The position numbers were made by a program, and so were the translations under genes. The notes under the pieces were generated by a model. The model was not told the DNA's origin. It ran no database searches and worked only from the letters and a program-made list of their open reading frames with translations. From a virus (Duplodnaviria; Heunggongvirae; Uroviricota; Caudoviricetes), in IMG/VR virus record IMGVR_UViG_2617270976_000015, positions 1 to 16,744 of that record: a stretch of 16,744 nucleotides of DNA; one strand, written 5' to 3'. Positions 5,544 to 13,052 of this stretch are shown in pieces (the first letter of the stretch is position 1; each line of letters begins with the position of its first letter).

Positions 5544-5958
5544 AGAAACCACCGTTTACTGTGCATAAAGACCCACCTTAGTTGGTGAGTCCATCATACA
5601 CAATTAATACATATATGGTTTAATTGAAATCCCCAAAAACATTCTGAATAGGTGAGGTGTTTTCTGGCTCCATAGCTATGACGTGGCTTTTGATGCCTAA
5701 CTTTATAAGGTGCCACGACAATGTGATAGGTACATAGGATTCAGTTACCAATGCAAAGCTTTGTGTGTCTCAGTTTTGTCTCATGCCAACCCAGTAGAAT
5801 CAATCTACTTAATCTCTCTGCAGTGAATATTTTGTTTGCACGCAATTGCACATGATGAACTGGCGCTTATGATAATTTCTGACGGTGATCTGATGGGAGT
5901 GAAAGTGCGGCTATCTGATGATACAATGCTCTTCAAAATAAACAGTTAGGTGATTTTT

Positions 5959-7002
5959 ATGTTGGTCAAAGATGCGCTAAAAAGGGATAACAATAACCTT
6001 GACTTAATACGTATTTTTTGTGCAATTTCTGTAATATTTGCCCATTCATATTATCTTGCAAATTCTGATGGAGCCCAGGAGCCGGTTCAGTCTGTTTTCA
6101 CATTTACATATACTGGTTCCATTGCTGTAAAAATATTTTTCTTTATTAGCGGAATGCTTGTAACTAATAGTTTATTAACAACGCGAAACATACCACACTT
6201 TATTTCATCTAGATTTTTTAGAATATTCCCCGCATTCATTTTTGTTTTATTATTCGCGACATTCATTGTTGGACCATTACTTACAACGCATTCAATGACA
6301 TCTTATTTAAAAGATACGCTGACGTACAGCTATCTATTTAAAAGCTCATATTTGGATATGCAATTTTTTCTTCCTGGTGTTTTTGAGGAAAATATATATA
6401 AAAGCTCAGTTAATGGTTCTTTATGGACAATACCATATGAAGTTGCATCTTATGTCGTGCTCCTAGCATGCTACATGATAACTCAGAGCAGAGGAAGAAT
6501 AATGCCTAGCATCATATGCTTATCAATAATAGCGCTTCCAGTATTGGGATGGAACAAATTAATTTTTATAAATAACGATAATGCAGATGTGTTTTTAATG
6601 GCTCCATGCTTTGCTCTTGGCGCATTGTATGCTATAAACAAGGACAAAATATACATTTCACTACATGCACCAATAGGATTTGCAATATTATATAATTTTG
6701 TGTCAGAACCAACACTCAAGCATATGCTTTTTTATTTTTGCGCATGTACATTTTTCGTATATTTATCAACAACAAAAATAATAAAATCAATAAGAATAAA
6801 ACATGATGTATCATATGGCGTTTACTTGTGGGGCTTTTTAATACAGCAGATAACATTCAGGTTATTACCTGATATAAATCTGTACTTAAATCAAGTTTTA
6901 TGCATAGCACTATCACTTATTGCTGGACTGATATCATTTATTGCGATAGAAAAACCAGCAATGGATATTGGGAAAAAGATATCAAACAAATTCAGATATT
7001 AG
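5959..7002 (+). CDS. acyltransferase family 3 integral membrane protein (Oac/OafA-like O-antigen acetyltransferase, membrane domain only)
   Basis: ATG 5959 with AGGTGA 7 nt upstream (track ORF starts at GTG 5950). About 10 TM helices; N-terminal RIFCAISVIFAHS resembles the conserved Arg/His motif of AT3 acyltransferases. Extremely AT-rich codon usage, which looks horizontally acquired. Confidence 0.75.
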   Translation: MLVKDALKRDNNNLDLIRIFCAISVIFAHSYYLANSDGAQEPVQSVFTFTYTGSIAVKIFFFISGMLVTNSLLTTRNIPHFISSRFFRIFPAFIFVLLFATFIVGPLLTTHSMTSYLKDTLTYSYLFKSSYLDMQFFLPGVFEENIYKSSVNGSLWTIPYEVASYVVLLACYMITQSRGRIMPSIICLSIIALPVLGWNKLIFINNDNADVFLMAPCFALGALYAINKDKIYISLHAPIGFAILYNFVSEPTLKHMLFYFCACTFFVYLSTTKIIKSIRIKHDVSYGVYLWGFLIQQITFRLLPDINLYLNQVLCIALSLIAGLISFIAIEKPAMDIGKKISNKFRY

Positions 7003-7004
7003 AT

Positions 7005-7030
7005 AAAAAGGGGCTTTCAGCCCCTTTTTT
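7005..7030. terminator. bidirectional rho-independent terminator between the convergent acyltransferase and beta-helix genes
   Basis: AAAAAGGGGCT-TTC-AGCCCCTTTTTTTT: GC stem 7010-7015 / 7019-7024 flanked by an A-run and a T-run. Confidence 0.8.
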
Positions 7031-8014
7031 TTACGTGGTAGTTGCGGATACCTTCCATTCACCAGTTGATACGTATGTCCACTTCCACGGTCCGGTAGAA
7101 ACCGGACCAAGCAATTCCCACTTGGTGCCAAACGGGAAATTAGTTGTATCTCCCGTGGGTGGTGATACTGATAGAACCGTTATATATCCTGACTCAAGTC
7201 TGCATAATGCAGTCCATGATGAGTTTCCGGTTATACTATAGGTGCCGCCTGAATCAACCTTGTTGATCCAGCTCTGCCCACTCCCCCATCTAATAGAATC
7301 AGTGGTGTTGTCGGGAATTACCGCACCATTAAAATTTGCAGTTGCATCATTAAGATATATGTATTTGCTAGATGAGACTCCAGAGTAACCAGAAAAATGA
7401 GATGAAACCAATGAGATGAAACACGATTCCAGAGATACAGCTTCAACTCCTCCATCATGATGATTAACCACTCTAAATGCAGTTACGTTAATTCGACTAC
7501 CATTTATATCAAATATTTTACCAGTGCCTTCTTCGCTTCCGCATCCAGATAGATTTACTCCAGTACAATCTTTAAATTTATAGCCAGTACCATTAACGAA
7601 GTCAGCAGCCAAACAAGTCAGGCTGCTATATGTAATGTTATTAAAATCATATGCAACACCTGAACATGTTTTCACATAAATATTCTTTAAATTATATGTG
7701 GTTCCACCTGCTTCGATTTTAACTCCAGTAACGACATCCTGAATAGTAATGTTTTCCCATGTCTGCAACCAGCTATCACTAGTGCGATAACCGGTTTTCA
7801 CCCTATGAATATACAGGTCCTGAAGGCGCACATTGTAACTGATAGCGCTATATATCCCGTAATCACAAGGATTGGGCGCAGTATTTAGAATACTCAATCC
7901 AATTATTCTGGTGCTTCTTGTTTGTTTCCCGCTTAAATCACCTGATGTGTCACTATCCATATCTACCGCAACAATAAAGTCTTTGGAGAAGCTGTGTGGT
8001 ACACCCTGCCACAT
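7031..8014 (-). CDS. right-handed beta-helix (pectate-lyase-fold) protein resembling a tailspike/depolymerase receptor-binding domain; possibly a remnant
   Basis: Ser/Thr/Gly/Asn-rich sequence with repetitive short beta-strand motifs (for example NLKNIYVKTCSGVAYDFNNITYSS, GTGKIFDINGSRINV). No signal peptide, weak RBS; its frame is open for only 17 codons upstream of the Met and overlaps the upstream ORF. Confidence 0.45.
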   Translation of the reverse strand: MWQGVPHSFSKDFIVAVDMDSDTSGDLSGKQTRSTRIIGLSILNTAPNPCDYGIYSAISYNVRLQDLYIHRVKTGYRTSDSWLQTWENITIQDVVTGVKIEAGGTTYNLKNIYVKTCSGVAYDFNNITYSSLTCLAADFVNGTGYKFKDCTGVNLSGCGSEEGTGKIFDINGSRINVTAFRVVNHHDGGVEAVSLESCFISLVSSHFSGYSGVSSSKYIYLNDATANFNGAVIPDNTTDSIRWGSGQSWINKVDSGGTYSITGNSSWTALCRLESGYITVLSVSPPTGDTTNFPFGTKWELLGPVSTGPWKWTYVSTGEWKVSATTT

Positions 8015-8382
8015 GCGATCCGGAACGGTTTTAATATCGTTACGCGCTGTTTTGCAGCATCCAGTTCAATCGACAATTTTTCCAACTGCTCTTTATGCTT
8101 TTTATATTCCTGATATGCGTGCCAGGACTGACCTTTGCGCACACTATCAGTAATATCAGTAATCTGTTCTGGTGTTAGCGTGGTCAGTGGCTGTGCTGGG
8201 AAAATCAGCACTTTCCCGGAATCCCAATCAAAACCAGCGTGAATTGACTGAACCTCAACTGAGGGTGTTGAACCAATGCTGCCAGGCGAATAAACAACGA
8301 TCGTTACATCCATATCGCGACGATGGCTGTGGTTGTTGGACAAAATACGATTCACCAACTCAGAAAATTTGGAGAATTTCAT
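7963..8382 (-). CDS. hypothetical phage protein (139 aa) with C-terminal coiled-coil; may be the N-terminal part of a frameshifted tailspike-like gene
   Basis: ORF with ATG at 8382; 52-nt overlap in a different frame with the beta-helix ORF. No motif I recognise. Confidence 0.4.
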   Translation of the reverse strand: MKFSKFSELVNRILSNNHSHRRDMDVTIVVYSPGSIGSTPSVEVQSIHAGFDWDSGKVLIFPAQPLTTLTPEQITDITDSVRKGQSWHAYQEYKKHKEQLEKLSIELDAAKQRVTILKPFRIACGRVYHTASPKTLLLR

Positions 8383-8390
8383 GCGGAGCC

Positions 8391-8801
8391 TCAGTATGTA
8401 AAATAGACAGTTGCCACGCCGTTATAGTGATCAAACGATACGGCATTTACTTCATAGCTGGCGGGGAGCTTCGATCCGAGAACGTATCCGGGCCACTTTT
8501 TCCATGGAATTTCTCTGCGCTCACTATCGCCATATACCGTACATCCCAGTGAGCCTACAGCTTCACCAGAACGTGTGCCGCACGTTATGAATCCAAGATT
8601 TTGCTTACTGGCCTTAATAGCGATCGATGGAGTACTAACCGATGCATTGGCTGCTCTATTCGCCTGTTGGCTTGCAATAGCTGCGGAATTAGCAGCTGCA
8701 ACAGCAGCAGTGGTCGCGGCGGTAGAGGCAACAATAGCTGCTGAAGCATGCACTTGTTGGATATTCACCAACAATGCCGCCACAAAAATCATCTTCTTCA
8801 C
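8391..8801 (-). CDS. secreted protein of unknown function (signal peptide, Ala-rich linker, C-terminal domain with two Cys)
   Basis: GTG start at 8801 with AAGGAG 7 nt upstream, overlapping the upstream stop (GTGA). N-terminus MKKMIFVAALLVNIQQVHA looks like a Sec signal peptide. Confidence 0.55.
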   Translation of the reverse strand: MKKMIFVAALLVNIQQVHASAAIVASTAATTAAVAAANSAAIASQQANRAANASVSTPSIAIKASKQNLGFITCGTRSGEAVGSLGCTVYGDSERREIPWKKWPGYVLGSKLPASYEVNAVSFDHYNGVATVYFTY

Positions 8802-9442
8802 TTGTCAGCTCCTTTGCGAATCTGTTCCGCCCATTCTTCAAGGGATTTCTCCGCATATTCACCGGACAGGCCATCAATCGGGTGCGGTTCATTAGCCAAC
8901 TCTTCTTTCGCTGACAGAATCATGCGCGTAACGTCGAAAACTTCACGTAAAGACTTATTGATAAATCCGTGATTGAACGCAGCAGCAAGACGGCTTGCGG
9001 TATAGTTAATCCCCTCGTTGCGAGCCTCCGCCCGAATTTCAGCCGTGAAGGCGTCGGTTGCTGACATAGACAGTGCTGATTTAGCATCAAACATGAGCGA
9101 CGCTGCGGGATTGATTGACTTCTCCTCTGGAGAAATACCGCTCATTGCAAATTGGTTTATCATGCGTTCAACCACTTCACGCAATGCCGCATTCTCCGCC
9201 GCCAGCGCCGAAAACTTCTCGTGTGCCAACTTAACAGCTGCATCAGCCTGCTTAATTGACTCAATCGCTTTCTGCTGGTCTTCGGCCATCGCATTAGCAC
9301 GCACCAGTTGCACTTCCAGTTGCGTTGCCAAATCGCTGATCAGCTTTGCCACACTGCGCATATCAACGGCACCACATTCTGCTTTCAGTTCCGAAGCCAT
9401 CTCATGCCCGGCGGCAACTAACCCTTTGATATTACTTTCCAT
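8798..9442 (-). CDS. hypothetical cytoplasmic helical protein (214 aa), nin-position gene
   Basis: ATG 9442 with GAGGG RBS; predicted helical with Ala/Glu/Lys-rich coiled-coil-like segments; no Cys-rich zinc-finger as in lambda Q. Confidence 0.5.
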   Translation of the reverse strand: MESNIKGLVAAGHEMASELKAECGAVDMRSVAKLISDLATQLEVQLVRANAMAEDQQKAIESIKQADAAVKLAHEKFSALAAENAALREVVERMINQFAMSGISPEEKSINPAASLMFDAKSALSMSATDAFTAEIRAEARNEGINYTASRLAAAFNHGFINKSLREVFDVTRMILSAKEELANEPHPIDGLSGEYAEKSLEEWAEQIRKGADK

Positions 9443-9503
9443 CTTTACCCTCGCTTATCCACATAACTTATTGATTGCATTGATAACTAAAAAGATCGTC
9501 GAT

Positions 9504-9848
9504 TCAGAACTCTTCGATGTTCCAGCCACCACCTGCTTTCTTTGGTTTAACCGTTACCCCGATGATTCGGAACGGATACTGATCTGCGGCGACTTTGGTT
9601 TTCACCCTGGCGTCGTCGGTCCAGAAACCTTTCACTTCGTGCAGTTCCATCTCGCCGGTGGCGAGCATCACAGCAAAATCGGGCGTATAGAACGTGTTGT
9701 CAGCTAACCGCAGCTTGATACCCTCAAATCGATACCAGACGATTTCTCCTGCACGTTTACGCAACTCAAGGTGCTGGCAATACGCAGATTCTGTTTTGTT
9801 CATCTGGCCTGTTTTGAGTCGACCAAGAGCCTGTATCTGTTTTCTCAT
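9504..9848 (-). CDS. small PD-(D/E)XK-motif protein (DUF1064-like), putative nuclease
   Basis: ATG 9848; motifs YTPDFAV and ELHEVKG fit a PD...(D/E)xK nuclease core; position just after the replication genes. Family name is from memory. Confidence 0.5.
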   Translation of the reverse strand: MRKQIQALGRLKTGQMNKTESAYCQHLELRKRAGEIVWYRFEGIKLRLADNTFYTPDFAVMLATGEMELHEVKGFWTDDARVKTKVAADQYPFRIIGVTVKPKKAGGGWNIEEF

Positions 9849-9851
9849 AAT

Positions 9852-9929
9852 TTACCCCTGAGGTAATTAAAAACCACATAAGACACGAAATCAATATGGT
9901 TTAGAATATTTTGTTACCCAGCAGGTAAC
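9852..9929 (-). promoter_or_regulatory. operator-promoter-operator unit: two TTACC-N5-GGTAA palindromes (9852-9866, 9913-9929) flanking a leftward -35 TTGATT / -10 TTTAAT
   Basis: Both palindromes match the operator consensus found at the repressor gene perfectly; their centres are 62 bp apart, the same spacing as the pL-like pair at 12957-13033. The -35/-10 reading is approximate. Confidence 0.5.
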
Positions 9930-9965
9930 TATCAAGGCGTAAAAAAATGCGCTATCGCGCTGGTA

Positions 9966-10766: not shown

Positions 10767-11563
10767 GCTTCAGGGCTGTTCCAGTGCGGAACGTTGTTAT
10801 CAGGTAATGTTGATTGCTTCTGTCTGCTAATCTGCAGCCGCCTTGCCAGCTTCTGCTCCCACTGTGCCTGATGGTATGCCTTACCCTCAGCCATCCAGTA
10901 AATTCTGAACTCTGCAAGCTCCTGTGCCGTTGGCAGACTGTCCAGGTAGATCCCCTGCAATGAGCTTTTCCGAAGAAAGTCATCTGATGGCTGCCATTGT
11001 TCATGCATGACAAATTTGCCTAATTGCCCTGGCCCACCAGGAGGAACAAAGTTATTCATCACGGCGTTGTTTGCGCCGGGGTCATGAGGCACAGAATCCC
11101 CGCTTTTTGTCCTGCTCTCCCTCTCTTGGTTAAATGACTGGTTATATGACTGGTTCTGGATCCCGTTTTTGGGATCATTCAACATCCCGTTTTTGGGATC
11201 ATTCAACATCCCGTTTTTGGGTATATTCCCGTTTTCGGTAACATTACCGTTTTCGGGTTCATTACCCCCTTCCCGGTTGCCTTTAATGTTTCCGTTTTTG
11301 GTTATATTAAGAGAGAAAACCCGCACTCTTTTCGTCGCACCCTTTCTCTCTCCGGTATCTGAAATAAGCCCCATTTTCATGAGCGATATAAGCCCGGCCT
11401 GCACGGTTTTTTTATTCAGGCAAGTGTCTTTAACGAGGCGTTCTATGCTGGGGTAGCAGAGGTTATATTCATCGGCTCTGTCAGCCATCGAGAGCAGTAT
11501 GAGCTTTAATGACGAGCTACCTGGATCTGTCTCCCAGGCCCAATCTGTTGCATGTCTGCTCAT
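10748..11563 (-). CDS. lambda O-like replication initiator (N-terminal HTH domain, internal repeat/iteron-encoding linker, C-terminal domain)
   Basis: ATG 11563 with GGAG RBS; N-terminal LKLILLSMADRADEYNLCYPSIERLVKDTCLNKKTVQAGLISLMKMGLI looks like a helix-turn-helix; the mid-gene tandem repeats encode NGMLNDPKNGMLNDPKNG; placed directly before the P-like gene. Confidence 0.7.
   Translation of the reverse strand: MSRHATDWAWETDPGSSSLKLILLSMADRADEYNLCYPSIERLVKDTCLNKKTVQAGLISLMKMGLISDTGERKGATKRVRVFSLNITKNGNIKGNREGGNEPENGNVTENGNIPKNGMLNDPKNGMLNDPKNGIQNQSYNQSFNQERESRTKSGDSVPHDPGANNAVMNNFVPPGGPGQLGKFVMHEQWQPSDDFLRKSSLQGIYLDSLPTAQELAEFRIYWMAEGKAYHQAQWEQKLARRLQISRQKQSTLPDNNVPHWNSPEAWEDFL
11161..11308. 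repeat. array of about 7 direct repeats (18-24 bp, core CCGTTTT(T)GG) inside the O-like gene; candidate replication-origin iterons
   Basis: Two perfect 24-bp units TCCCGTTTTTGGGATCATTCAACA at 11161-11184 and 11185-11208, then degenerate units to about 11308; a 10-bp direct repeat ATGACTGGTT x2 follows at 11133-11154. Confidence 0.65.
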
Positions 11564-11578
11564 GATTAATCTCCGCTA

Positions 11579-11779
11579 TCAGCTTGAATGTTGTGGGGAG
11601 GAATTAATCATGATCTGCTTAATCTCTGCCCTGATGCGACGGTTTGATTCCATAGTGCACTCAACACAGTGTCCGTTGTAAACCCAGCGTTCACTGTCAT
11701 GTCCGTGCTTACATGGTTTTCCGGTGTAGTAGCGTTTAAGTCCGCGCTTTGCGGCATCAATACGTGTAATAATTTCCAT
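11579..11779 (-). CDS. small zinc-ribbon-like protein at the cII position
   Basis: Cys/His cluster GKPCKHGHDSERWVYNGHCVEC; stop is 15 nt upstream of the O-like start. Start ambiguous: ATG 11779 chosen; the track ORF extends to a TTG at 11842. Confidence 0.4.
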   Translation of the reverse strand: MEIITRIDAAKRGLKRYYTGKPCKHGHDSERWVYNGHCVECTMESNRRIRAEIKQIMINSSPQHSS

Positions 11780-11888
11780 GGTAAGCCCTGTTATTAGTAT
11801 TGGGATTACGGTCATTTTGTGCTGACACAAAAAAAAGATCAACCAGATTTGGTTTTTTATTACCTTTGAGGTACGAATAGATATGAAA

Positions 11889-12160: not shown

Positions 12161-12314
12161 AGCTATTGCCTGATATTTATTTCAGATAATAAATATTCAC
12201 CCATAAGGTAACAAAAATCAAGGATAGTTACCTGTGGGGTGCATTTACCTATTGGGTAATATTGCTTTAAATTGAATCATCTACTGATTCATATATGAGG
12301 CGATTTTCCAGAAA
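12161..12314. promoter_or_regulatory. divergent promoter/operator region (OR-like) between the cro-like and repressor genes
   Basis: Contains TCACC-cataa-GGTAA (12197-12211), half-site GTTACC (12227-12232) and perfect TTACC-tattg-GGTAA (12245-12259); AT-rich promoter-like sequence on both strands. Confidence 0.6.
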
Positions 12315-12899
12315 ATGAAAAGTATCCAGGACGTCCGCAGGCAAAATCTCAACGACTTGATCGACCGTGAATTCAATGGTGTTCAGACGCGGATGGCTGA
12401 AAAACTTGGAACTCAGGCAAATCTGGTAAACCGCTGGGCTCTTGGCAAGAAGGTTATCGGCGACCAGGTTGCGCGAAAAATTGAAGCTGCCGCCAATAAA
12501 CCCCGTAACTGGCTTGATATCGATCGCTCGCTTTCTCAGGAAGGTTTTCAGCCTGTCGGCCCAAGCGACATTGGTCAGCTGGCGGCTCACAACCTGGAAC
12601 GCTGGATGAGCGAAAGCCGCGACCTTTCAACACAGGGAAAACTTCACCGCGCATCCGGCGTCGCCCAGGTGACAATCAGCCGCCTGTTAAACAATGAGGT
12701 CAGCGTTTCCATTTCCACCCTGGAGAATGTTGCATCTGCATTCGGGCGTCACGGATATGAACTACTGATTCACCCGCACGACCCTGCAACTATCAACTAT
12801 GACCGCTCGCGCTACGCATTGTTACCTGAAACCGAGAAAGCAAAGATCGAAAGTTACATTGAATTTGTCATCAACCAGAACGAAAAAAACAAACAATAA
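12315..12899 (+). CDS. prophage repressor (CI-like function), HTH protein without a recognisable S24 autopeptidase domain
   Basis: N-terminal HTH-like segment GVQTRMAEKLGTQANLVNRWALGKK and a second HTH-like segment ASGVAQVTISRLLNNEVSVSISTLENVASAF; divergent from the cro-like gene; flanked by the palindromic operators; I do not see the Ser/Lys motifs of LexA/CI-type C-terminal domains. Confidence 0.65.
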   Translation: MKSIQDVRRQNLNDLIDREFNGVQTRMAEKLGTQANLVNRWALGKKVIGDQVARKIEAAANKPRNWLDIDRSLSQEGFQPVGPSDIGQLAAHNLERWMSESRDLSTQGKLHRASGVAQVTISRLLNNEVSVSISTLENVASAFGRHGYELLIHPHDPATINYDRSRYALLPETEKAKIESYIEFVINQNEKNKQ

Positions 12900-12919: not shown

Positions 12920-12943
12920 AAGCCGCCTTCTGGTGGCTTTTTT
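12920..12943 (+). terminator. rho-independent terminator after the repressor gene
   Basis: Stem AAGCCGCC / GGTGGCTT (one G-U pair) with loop TTCT, followed by TTTTTT. Confidence 0.65.
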
Positions 12944-12956
12944 ATTGCCTATACTA

Positions 12957-13033
12957 TTACCTAATGGGTAATTTTTTTAACTCATATCTATTGACACCAA
13001 ACCAAATACGCATAATTATTACCTCAACGGTAA
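12957..13033 (+). promoter_or_regulatory. pL-like early promoter flanked by two operators (TTACC-taatg-GGTAA 12957-12971; TTACC-tcaac-GGTAA 13019-13033), -35 TTGACA at 12991-12996
   Basis: Two perfect 15-bp palindromes 62 bp apart bracketing a consensus -35 hexamer and an AT-rich -10 region, directly upstream of the first early ORF (13053). Confidence 0.6.
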
Positions 13034-13052
13034 CAGACCGAGGTAACAAGTT

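Follow-up and report, generated by a model that had tools for sequence, protein, structure and literature searches.

The DNA analysed here (16,744 nucleotides, referred to below as the window) carries three open reading frames between a P-like replication gene and the lysis cassette, and these encode proteins of 114, 214 and 136 amino acids (Table 1). In a preliminary description the three genes were regarded as uncharacterised and as occupying the place where a lambdoid phage would have its late antiterminator gene Q. The first of these statements stands only in part: database matches place all three proteins in catalogued phage families, and it is the functions of the 214-aa and 136-aa proteins that the matches leave unassigned. 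Likewise, the three reading frames are real, but they are not all that precedes the lysis cassette: a fourth open reading frame (8382-7963), a truncated tailspike gene and, on the opposite strand, an acyltransferase gene also lie there.

Table 1. Features of the three-gene region and of related parts of the window
Feature	Coordinates	Strand	Basis or remark
Tailspike gene, 3' half (receptor-binding part; head-binding part absent)	7031..8043	-	Sequence identity
139-aa fusion ORF	7963..8382	-	First ~113 residues from a DUF4752-type early gene, last ~26 from tailspike DNA past the junction
Deletion junction, overlap ≤3 bp	8041..8043		Joins early-right region to mid-tailspike gene
136-aa protein, predicted Sec-exported, GTG start	8391..8801	-	Signal peptide, Ala-rich linker, C-terminal domain
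214-aa modular coiled-coil protein, P22 EaE family, ATG start	8798..9442	-	Orthologue of phiV10 gp46 'eae-like'
114-aa DUF1064 protein, ATG start	9504..9848	-	Pfam, PHROG, synteny
Proximal operator palindrome, ATTACC-N5-GGTAAA	9851..9867		Overlaps ribosome-binding site of the 114-aa gene
Promoter-like pair TTGATT-17-TTTAAT, conserved	9894-9866	-	Read by eye; abuts proximal palindrome
Promoter-like pair TTGATA-16-CAAAAT	9935-9908	-	Scan; distal palindrome inside spacer
Distal operator palindrome, GTTACC-N5-GGTAAC	9913..9929		Motif count, conservation, epsilon15 annotation
Terminator-like hairpin, GCGC-GATA-GCGC + T7	9941..9960	-	Directly 3' of P-gene stop codon
Prophage repressor, intact	12315..12899	+	E 4e-42 to SPC32H repressor, PDB 5D50

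Products of the three genes

The 114-aa protein matched the Pfam family DUF1064 (PF06356) with 31.3 bits, against a curated gathering cut-off of 24.7 (E 2.9e-7), and phrog_190, 'Holliday junction resolvase' (E 7e-43). DUF1064 is a predicted PD-(D/E)XK nuclease family; fold recognition connects it with families for which T7 endonuclease I and TnsA served as models (PMC1189080). The catalytic motif of the protein reads YTPDF...HEVKG (D57, E71 and K73 by residue count), and E20 may supply the first acidic residue. T7 endonuclease I is likewise a small PD-(D/E)XK nuclease, and the YTPDF...E-x-K-G stretch of the 114-aa protein aligns with it; this alignment, over the catalytic PD...E-x-K stretch, is weak (E 0.2), so that the similarity is marginal, and the dimer-swapped architecture and the junction specificity are features of the T7 enzyme. 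The motif residues presumably correspond to those numbered in T7 endonuclease I. Together these matches place the 114-aa protein among the small PD-(D/E)XK nucleases resembling T7 endonuclease I, and so bear out the nuclease motif given in the preliminary description. The gene is under purifying selection (dN/dS 0.02-0.08) and its product is a probable Holliday-junction resolvase of the phage.

The 214-aa protein is 67% identical to gp46 of phiV10, and its residues 128-211 align with residues 81-162 of P22 EaE at 40% identity (E 9e-19). A tblastn search returned P22 eaE, ES18 gp43, several genes annotated as 'EaE protein' and Stx-converting phages. More than 7,600 homologues exist, one of them, in another assembly, 100% identical, and the PHROG match of the protein has an E-value of 1e-58. 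Residues ~86-127 form a hypervariable cassette between near-invariant flanks; at least 10 unrelated central cassettes are exchanged among the alleles. Over its conserved C-terminal part the gene has a dN/dS of about 0.12. The protein thus belongs, by sequence, to the EaE family as one of its mosaic members. No nucleic-acid-binding domain was recognisable in it by Pfam searches at E≤0.01 or at E≤1, and neither its family nor that of the 136-aa protein gave anything useful in the PDB by sequence or profile search. The AF2 model is all-helical and of low confidence (pLDDT 52.0, 24 sequences), too poor for use as a fold query.

HK446 gp27 (Oad2) appears to be a distant relative of the 214-aa protein: in a single comparison, 146 aligned residues were 25% identical (E 1e-5). 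This similarity covers residues 14-145, that is the N-terminal and coiled-coil part with its ATDAF motif, and not the C-terminal EaE domain; the C-terminal domain of Oad2 is unlike that of the 214-aa protein. P22 EaE, HK446 gp27 and the 214-aa protein have in common an ATDAFLAE-RAQ motif, a coiled coil ending in AAENAGL and a QxRKG tail, and the HK446 gp27 N-terminus is present in some alleles of the 214-aa family (P0087, P0142). The P22 and HK446 genes, however, belong to the early-left accessory/recombination region, whereas the EaE-like gene of the window follows the replication genes. Oad2, the one protein for which this activity is known, binds and blocks the OLD nuclease of P2, and an HK75 homologue 54% identical to Oad2 was insufficient to inhibit OLD defence (bioRxiv 10.64898/2026.07.10.737580). 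To carry the anti-OLD function over from Oad2 to the 214-aa protein would be speculative; by analogy with this distant relative, the binding partner of the 214-aa protein is most likely a protein of the host or of a defence system.

In its general build the protein also resembles lambda Ea22, with a short N-terminal part, a coiled coil, a variable C-terminal domain and a basic-Gly tail, and the mosaicism described for Ea22 (PMC7093339, PMC10834534) is of a similar kind to that of the 214-aa family. Some close homologues are labelled 'ead/Ea22-like' by NCBI, and some allelic variants with other cassettes carry Ead_Ea22 (PF13935). The 214-aa protein itself gave no match to PF13935 at E≤1 and no similarity to lambda Ea22 (BLASTP E 7.4), and hhalign of its family against phiV10 gp48, Tyrion gp49 and lambda Ea22 returned a probability of 0.3%. 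In view of this negative profile comparison with genuine Ead/Ea22 proteins the label was dropped for the present allele.

The 136-aa protein begins with MKK, a hydrophobic core and VHA|S, has 17 Ala in residues 20-58 and ends in a C-terminal domain some 70 residues long, in which C74 and C87 are family-invariant (alignments A1 and A6). Both cysteines and the signal-peptide-like N-terminus are found in every family member, even at 35-50% identity. The export signals show this to be a protein predicted to leave the cytoplasm by Sec, and its C-terminal domain is probably disulfide-bonded. The Ala-rich stretch was also considered as a second membrane helix (19-residue Kyte-Doolittle mean 1.53); distant family members are without the stretch, and it is more likely that the signal peptide is cleaved off and that the stretch behind it serves as a linker. 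The match to phrog_8805 is full-length (residues 1-136, E 3.2e-81), one source names the protein 'Prophage exported protein', another assembly encodes a protein 99% identical to it, and dN/dS is 0.21-0.26. No match was obtained in Pfam, NCBIfam, PADLOC or the PDB; further matches of heterogeneous Pfam content (Ig, DUF11, Big_3_5) over short stretches were set aside as composition or beta-repeat noise. The AF2 model (20-sequence alignment) has a pLDDT of 48.2 and is of too low a confidence to serve as a fold query.

The 136-aa gene was not found in any sequenced Uetakevirus isolate. It occurs also in Mu-like, lambdoid and P1-like phages and in isolates that are probably virulent (Av-05 and 45-kb phages), and its family extends over at least five phage backbones. 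A 218-aa gene near a distant 136-aa homologue was examined as a candidate EaE relative, and the comparison was negative. In the window, the 214-aa stop codon and the GTG start of the 136-aa gene overlap in the sequence GTGA, with AAGGAG as ribosome-binding site 8 nt upstream. This overlap, together with the signal peptide and the alanine content, supports the earlier proposal of a translationally coupled secreted protein with an Ala-rich linker.

Control region upstream of the 114-aa gene

The P gene is followed by a terminator-like hairpin with a computed RNA fold of -8.4 kcal/mol (z = -2.6). Among six Uetakevirus relatives the loop is variable but stem and T-run never change, and the corresponding phiV10 hairpin is annotated as a putative rho-independent terminator. 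The stem has only 4 bp, which is below the length for the terminator consensus scan.

Beyond the hairpin lie two palindromes of the form TTACC-N5-GGTAA. The window has 7 copies of this motif where 0.29 would be expected, and they are found at OR, at OL and before the 114-aa gene. In the relatives the half-sites are invariant and the spacer is variable, and the equivalent epsilon15 site is annotated in GenBank as 'protein_bind: repressor'. The two palindromes stand 62 bp apart, centre to centre, as do the pair at OL, and the order of elements at OL (12929-13034) also matches: terminator, palindrome, minus-35, minus-10, palindrome. Of the two promoter-like pairs in Table 1, the one that abuts the proximal palindrome has a TATTGA core that is invariant in the six relatives. 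Its conserved minus-10 candidate TTTAAT is without the usual A at position 2, and the start site is uncertain.

These features suggest that the candidate promoter at 9851-9935 is repressor-controlled, and the repressor-controlled promoter proposed in the preliminary description was thereby upheld at sequence level. The repressor gene of the window is intact. Its product is homologous to the SPC32H repressor, which acts as a tetramer on palindromic DNA (PMC9638917), and by analogy the window repressor is presumed to bind the palindromes before the three genes.

Prophage layout and the deletion

The best DNA matches of the window by megablast were to phiV10, ZX5, PAS61, TL-2011b, SPN1S and related phages, and the prophage is integrated between yfgI and guaA. 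Gene content, gene order, guaA-side integration, the repressor and the repressor palindromes are those of Uetakevirus. Sequence comparison therefore identifies the window as a defective phiV10/epsilon15-like (Uetakevirus) prophage and not as a phage of lambda layout. The virion genes that define morphotype are among those deleted from it.

In intact relatives the P gene is followed by the terminator, the repressor-controlled promoter, the resolvase gene, the EaE-like gene, variable small genes, a gene for a 112-aa regulator and terS; after terS come the virion genes, the tailspike gene, an O-antigen gene and the lysis genes. The order from P through DUF1064 and the eae-like gene on to the regulator and terS was found in phiV10, E. 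coli 2015C-4944, BUCT554, Tyrion, SPN1S and epsilon15, with a RuvC-type resolvase in the corresponding slot of Tyrion (Pfam RuvC, 25.0 vs 22.2 bits) and epsilon15. The 214-aa orthologue adjoins the resolvase gene in five of the six Uetakevirus genomes compared, and the BUCT554 orthologue is without the N-terminal module. The early-right regions of phiV10 (gp44 P, gp45 DUF1064, gp46 eae-like) and of epsilon15 (gp43 resolvase, gp44 Eae-like) thus represent a genus-level backbone in common with the window, comprising P, the terminator, two repressor palindromes, the resolvase and the EaE-like gene, at about 94-96% DNA identity in the parts common to the window and phiV10. The window differs from both phages in the central cassette of its EaE-like gene, in having the additional gene for the 136-aa exported protein, and in lacking all DNA from the DUF4752-type gene as far as mid-tailspike; where epsilon15 has a RuvC-type resolvase, the window has DUF1064.

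The loss can be located precisely. By megablast, tailspike and acyltransferase sequence (H77) matches window positions 6950-8043, whereas DUF4752-type genes (H81-H86) match positions 8041-8150, with matches ending at 8041/8044. The junction is identical in assembly GCA_000704325.1. The 139-aa ORF is a fusion across it, and its match to phrog_6026 is confined to residues 1-113. The tailspike remnant is 98.5% identical to the 3' part of a 605-aa 'phage head-binding domain-containing protein' of E. coli VE-T9, and 46% identical to Salmonella phage tail proteins. As read from these matches, a deletion of about 24 kb took away the candidate late-control region and nearly all virion genes, and brought the lysis genes beside the three early genes. 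The lysis genes stand near P because this sequence has been lost at 8041-8043.

Late control and the accessory genes

It follows that the expectation of Q between P and the lysis genes does not apply, since this type of phage never has a lambda-style Q there. The lambdoid layout assumed in the preliminary description fails for the same genomes: the lysis genes of phiV10 lie beyond the tailspike gene and oac, and in phiV10/epsilon15-type phages generally they close the late region, behind the tailspike and O-antigen genes. A Q-type location is not seen in the intact relatives, where further early genes, terS and virion genes, and not lysis genes, follow. The observation that no Q-like protein is encoded was correct in itself: none of the three proteins matched a Pfam Q family at E≤0.01 (nor the 214-aa protein at E≤1), and the Cys-rich zinc pattern is absent, with one Cys each in the 114-aa and 214-aa proteins and two in the 136-aa protein. 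Lambdoid phages have rap/ninG or rusA after the replication genes, and the window resembles the lambda nin region in having a putative recombination-junction nuclease after the replication genes and then small accessory genes. It differs in having no Q and no qut/PR'/tR' arrangement, and in what appears to be a repressor-controlled promoter of its own for the operon, against N-type antitermination in lambda.

The 214-aa protein had been put forward as the candidate for a divergent late regulator. Such a late activator or antiterminator in place of Q would fit a gene that is so constant a neighbour of the resolvase gene, and no other regulator is recognisable downstream of P in the window. It is nevertheless very improbable. 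The relatives of the protein lie in early-left accessory regions of P22 (eaE) and HK446, with further matches in Stx-converting phages and ES18. P22 and the Stx phages carry late regulators of their own. No domain for binding DNA or RNA is recognisable in the protein, and it matches none of the Q families; its centre is exchanged among unrelated cassettes, unlike a core regulator, and one orthologue lacks an entire module. In the intact relatives, moreover, the gene is separated from terS by 2.5-3.5 kb and several genes, and it is the conserved 112-aa regulator that stands directly before terS. Less credible still is that the three open reading frames are chance frames or decayed pseudogenes of a dead prophage. 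The prophage is defective, with about 24 kb missing, a truncated tailspike gene and a fusion ORF, but all three genes are full-length relative to their orthologues with no frameshifts or premature stops seen, and their strong PHROG matches and dN/dS values well below 1 argue against decay. The genes may still be silent and useless in the present host.

The preliminary description also raised the possibility of a moron pair. The 214-aa and 136-aa genes do look like accessory cargo, and a module expressed from the prophage to protect the lysogen by exclusion or defence would suit a predicted exported protein whose gene moves between phage types and is coupled to its partner by an identical GTGA overlap in each of two phage backbones. 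Expression in the lysogen is where this idea falters. The pair belongs to an operon with two repressor palindromes at its promoter, and neither reading of the sequence nor a promoter/terminator scan disclosed a promoter or terminator specific to the pair, so that it should be silent in the lysogen. PADLOC gave no match for the 114-aa or 136-aa protein and one marginal coiled-coil match for the 214-aa protein (E 0.017, 11.9 bits), none of them convincing; the 136-aa gene occurs without an EaE-type partner in Mu-like prophages and other phages, and its presence in probably virulent isolates points to a role in lytic growth. A lysogen-protecting module is therefore unlikely.

The reading preferred here, to which we give a probability of roughly three in four, is that the three open reading frames stand at the head of an early operon under separate control in a defective Uetakevirus prophage, and that none of them is a late regulator. 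Transcription from the replication genes would meet the short terminator after P and restart at the promoter flanked by two repressor palindromes, as sequence and conservation suggest; the operon would be silent in the lysogen and be switched on early after derepression. The 114-aa nuclease would then resolve branched replication or recombination intermediates, the 214-aa protein would bind a host or defence protein, as Oad2 does OLD, and the 136-aa protein, exported by Sec to the periplasm, would act on the envelope through its C-terminal domain. In intact relatives the operon continues via the variable small genes to the conserved 112-aa regulator with its Cys-rich tail (gp55 in phiV10), where late control is proposed to reside; a terminator, a further two palindromes and terS follow. 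The deletion removed this whole stretch here and left the three early genes adjoining the tailspike remnant and the lysis cassette. The 'missing Q' is then an artefact of reading a deleted epsilon15/phiV10-type prophage with the lambda layout, and no new late-control mechanism is needed for the window.

For the 136-aa protein, superinfection exclusion or protection of the envelope in lytic growth is the leading guess. A more tentative proposal, rather improbable as it stands, is that the 214-aa and 136-aa proteins work as a pair in counter-defence and exclusion across two compartments, switched on at derepression, with a cytoplasmic EaE/Oad2-type inhibitor and a periplasmic disulfide-bonded protein. 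If so, the swappable central cassette of the 214-aa protein would set which host immune protein is blocked, and a periplasmic family that had gone unstudied would block superinfection or protect the envelope. The 136-aa family is small, spread over its several backbones and without a Pfam model. The mosaic EaE-like family is large and includes one distant member with a proven anti-defence role, and its cassettes are well suited to tests of specificity.

Gene order and deletion in a Uetakevirus-type prophage

DNA searches matched the region to the podoviruses phiV10, ZX5, PAS61, TL-2011b and SPN1S of the genus Uetakevirus, and the prophage is integrated between yfgI and guaA. Intact gene order was taken from phiV10, the E. 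coli 2015C-4944 prophage, BUCT554, Tyrion, SPN1S and epsilon15, and a single order is kept in all six. The repressor, a divergent cro-like gene, a small gene and the O-like and P-like replication genes are followed by a short intergenic region, a resolvase and an EaE-like gene; then come variable small genes (Ead/Ea22, DUF551, DUF4752, ASCH), a 112-aa ‘transcriptional regulator’, terS, terL, portal and the remaining virion genes, and lastly the tailspike, an O-antigen-modifying gene on the opposite strand, holins, endolysin, spanins and the integrase. The lysis cassette therefore lies at the distal end of the late genes, past the virion genes and tailspike, and not downstream of the replication genes. 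The preliminary description had expected a lambda-like layout, with Q between the P-like gene and the lysis cassette; this expectation fails, so that its interpretation is right only in part. What stands is the lack of a Q gene, the repressor-controlled promoter and the view of the 214-aa/136-aa pair as accessory cargo. All three genes are new members of families already catalogued, and the phage genus itself is well known.

The 114-aa, 214-aa and 136-aa ORFs are all genuine genes. Their PHROG profile E-values are 7e-43, 1e-58 and 3e-81, respectively, and dN/dS against orthologues is 0.02–0.08 for the 114-aa gene, ∼0.12 for the conserved C-terminal part of the 214-aa gene and 0.21–0.26 for the 136-aa gene. 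The 214-aa stop and 136-aa start share the sequence GTGA, with AAGGAG 8 nt upstream, and the proposed translational coupling of these genes is therefore real. Residue composition revealed no Cys-rich motif in any of the three proteins, and none matched any Q family of Pfam at E ≤ 0.01 (nor did the 214-aa protein at E ≤ 1), in keeping with the earlier reading that no Q is recognisable.

Immediately before terS, every intact relative has a gene for a 102–112-aa protein of phrog_536 (‘transcriptional regulator’). The phiV10 protein has a basic N-terminal part, with a weak match to a LexA-regulated ribbon-helix-helix-type protein (E 0.05), and a Cys-rich tail, CGKCG...CPCNGDSQC. This is the kind of Cys-rich protein sought in the preliminary description, and it belongs to the deleted segment; late control probably resides with this regulator. 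On the 3′ side of its gene, a GC-rich terminator is followed by two tandem palindromes, which directly adjoin what is probably the true start codon of terS. Annotation of phiV10 and the 2015C-4944 prophage places the terS start upstream of these elements. A conserved peptide, M(M)P-x-x-PKT-x-KRKSTQ, begins just past the palindromes, and the annotated start is therefore probably ∼26 codons too early.

Matches of the window to a DUF4752-type early gene end at 8041, and those to a tailspike-plus-acyltransferase module start at 8043 and extend leftwards; the ORF across this junction is thus a fusion product. The module shares 98.5% identity with one in a P22-like prophage of E. coli VE-T9, which indicates that a receptor-binding and O-antigen-modification module was swapped between two podovirus groups. 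It occupies 5950–8043, comprising the 3′ half of the tailspike gene and the adjoining acyltransferase gene, and the VE-T9 prophage sits at argW. Intact genomes measure 38.7–41.8 kb vs ∼14.5 kb left in the window, which suggests that roughly 24 kb is missing. The same defective prophage is present in GCA_000704325.1 (contig JNQT01000014.1), fusion ORF and truncated tailspike included, so the structure is not an assembly error of one record; either the deletion was inherited or the window derives from the GCA_000704325.1 genome itself. The prophage is dead, and its intact repressor probably keeps the three genes silent. At the window's edge (1–1601), an IS1 copy (InsA ORF 1–276) cuts off pdeF, leaving a 424-residue remnant ORF (327–1601) vs the intact 2,244-bp pdeF of strain AST205.

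Coordinates of the genes, control elements and junction features (window positions unless a locus is named)
Feature	Position	Strand	Remarks
114-aa ORF	9848-9504	minus	ATG start, Shine-Dalgarno present
214-aa ORF	9442-8798	minus	ATG start, Shine-Dalgarno present
136-aa ORF	8801-8391	minus	GTG start, Shine-Dalgarno present
Terminator-like hairpin	9960-9941	minus	GCGC-N4-GCGC, then T7
Distal palindrome	9929-9913		GTTACC-N5-GGTAAC
Candidate promoter	9894-9866	minus	TTGATT-17-TTTAAT, conserved
Proximal palindrome	9867-9851		ATTACC-N5-GGTAAA; overlaps ribosome-binding site of 114-aa gene
TTACC-N5-GGTAA copies	9852-9866, 9914-9928, 11860-11874, 12197-12211, 12245-12259, 12957-12971, 13019-13033
Fusion ORF	8382-7963	minus	phrog_6026 spans first 113 residues only
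Tailspike remnant ORF	8014-7031	minus	C-terminal 327 residues of ∼605-aa tailspike
terS start region (loci from relatives)	L002 6708-6790; L018 40-125; L010 8425-8470		outside window, in part deleted from its prophage

The control region and its repressor palindromes

The control region was taken as the interval from the P stop codon (9966) to the 114-aa start (9848), read on the minus strand. In six relatives the hairpin stem, T-run, palindrome half-sites and a TATTGA sequence are invariant, and the loop and N5 spacers vary. The elements are arranged as at the leftward early promoter (terminator, palindrome, TTGACA, 17 nt, AATTAT, palindrome), both having a 62-bp palindrome spacing. A promoter scan returned TTGATA-16-CAAAAT only, and conservation does not extend to its −35 element; the conserved candidate departs from the canonical −10 sequence. 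The motif TTACC-N5-GGTAA occurs seven times in the window vs 0.29 expected, with copies between the repressor and cro-like genes (12197–12259), ahead of the leftward early genes (12957–13033) and after the cro terminator. In the epsilon15 GenBank record the equivalent site (35906–35922) is annotated ‘protein_bind: repressor’; indeed, a search with the motif retrieves all such annotated sites of epsilon15. Moreover, an intact repressor is encoded in the window; its homologue of solved structure, the SPC32H repressor (E 4e-42 to PDB 5D50), is a tetramer on palindromic DNA (PMC9638917). Taken together, palindrome enrichment and conservation, the epsilon15 annotation and the intact repressor homologue indicate that the proposed repressor-controlled promoter is well founded. 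Such control is already known for the phiV10/epsilon15 group.

Whole-genome counts of the motif are 14 in phiV10 and 15 in epsilon15, vs ∼0.6 expected. All phiV10 copies are intergenic, as are all epsilon15 copies but one (11654–11668, inside a virion gene). They head transcription units: terS, the head genes, a Bro-N (antirepressor-like) gene, the tailspike, the holin/O-antigen divergent region, int, the small gene after cro and the resolvase; several are annotated as repressor sites in the epsilon15 record. The pattern suggests that nearly every operon of these phages is repressed directly, through many sites, in loose analogy to the stoperators of mycobacteriophage L5. The palindrome between oac and the holin gene of phiV10 is missing from the window.

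The three encoded proteins

The 114-aa protein scores above cut-off with Pfam DUF1064, for which a 2005 study predicted a PD-(D/E)XK nuclease (PMC1189080), and also matches phrog_190 (‘Holliday junction resolvase’). Alignment of its YTPDF...HEVKG stretch with the T7 endonuclease I active site is marginal (E 0.2), and the best functional evidence is its position behind the control region. In Tyrion and epsilon15 the same conserved region precedes a RuvC-family resolvase instead of DUF1064, which is a non-orthologous replacement in one slot. We infer that the 114-aa protein is the phage's junction-resolving nuclease.

The 214-aa protein is the orthologue of phiV10 gp46 (‘eae-like’, 67% identity), is 100% identical to a database protein and has > 7,600 relatives. 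In an alignment of 26 sequences, residues 1–85 and 128–214 are near-invariant and flank a central cassette of ∼40 residues found in at least 10 unrelated forms; at the nucleotide level the cassette is saturated, and the flanks differ at 1–13% of synonymous sites. Residues 128–211 share 40% identity with the C-terminal domain of P22 EaE (E 9e-19), and residues 14–145 share 25% with HK446 gp27 (E 1e-5), the N-terminus of which is present in some alleles. HK446 gp27 is Oad2, which binds the P2 OLD nuclease and blocks OLD toxicity and defence, and its authors point out a relation to P22 EaE (bioRxiv 10.64898/2026.07.10.737580, July 2026 preprint). The NCBI label ‘ead/Ea22-like’ for this allele was rejected: PF13935 was not matched, BLASTP showed no similarity to lambda Ea22, and hhalign gave a probability of 0.3%.

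The preliminary description had named this protein as the candidate late regulator. In P22 and HK446 its relatives belong to the early-left accessory region, and further matches came from Stx-converting phages. P22 and Stx phages carry late regulators of their own, and this distribution therefore argues against a Q-like role. By analogy, the protein would most likely bind a host or defence protein, with the cassette setting specificity. EaE-like alleles ending in RKGADK precede the 136-aa gene in every neighbourhood checked; other allele tails are GGNQ, GVQS and GSSQ. The G-A-D-K-stop codons hold the ribosome-binding site and GTG start of the 136-aa gene, and this tail therefore marks a recombination joint.

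The 136-aa protein begins with a predicted, typical Sec signal peptide (MKK, hydrophobic core, VHA|S), followed by an Ala-rich linker (17 Ala in residues 20–58) and a domain of ∼70 residues; one source names it ‘Prophage exported protein’. It had no match in Pfam, NCBIfam, PADLOC or PDB. By k-mer search, close relatives amounted to only 56 clusters, from Escherichia, Salmonella, Shigella and Citrobacter; exhaustive HMMER and profile searching enlarged the family to 106 clusters (109–159 aa). The signal peptide is present in all members and the linker missing in many; G70, T73, C74, G75, C87, P104, Y116, D124 and a C-terminal T-x-Y-F-x-Y are invariant.

The gene is mobile among phage types. In the Uetakevirus prophage type its coupled partner is an EaE-type gene whose product ends in GADK, and in a lambdoid-looking prophage it follows, at the same joint, another gene with an EaE C-terminal domain. 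In Mu-like prophages it lies uncoupled in the early region; elsewhere it is accompanied by genes resembling hot, humD and phd/doc, a context that appears P1-like. It also occurs in ∼45-kb phages and the 121-kb phage Av-05, and in no sequenced Uetakevirus isolate. That the operon is repressed and that probably virulent phages also have the gene suggests an envelope function in lytic growth, superinfection exclusion being the leading guess.

Other features of the replication region

The first gene after the cro terminator (11908–11889) and a single palindrome is a 66-aa ORF (11579–11779, minus strand) of the epsilon15 gp40/phiV10 gp42 family. It had no Pfam match and contains a Cys/His cluster, CKHGH...CVEC; the product could be a small zinc-binding regulator. 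Within the O-like replication gene, TGGGATCATTCAACATCCCGTTTTTGGG occurs twice in tandem at 11170–11213, with 24 bp between the copies, and the protein has repeated NGN/PKNGMLND units there. These copies resemble iterons, which would place an origin inside the initiator gene, the arrangement known from lambda.
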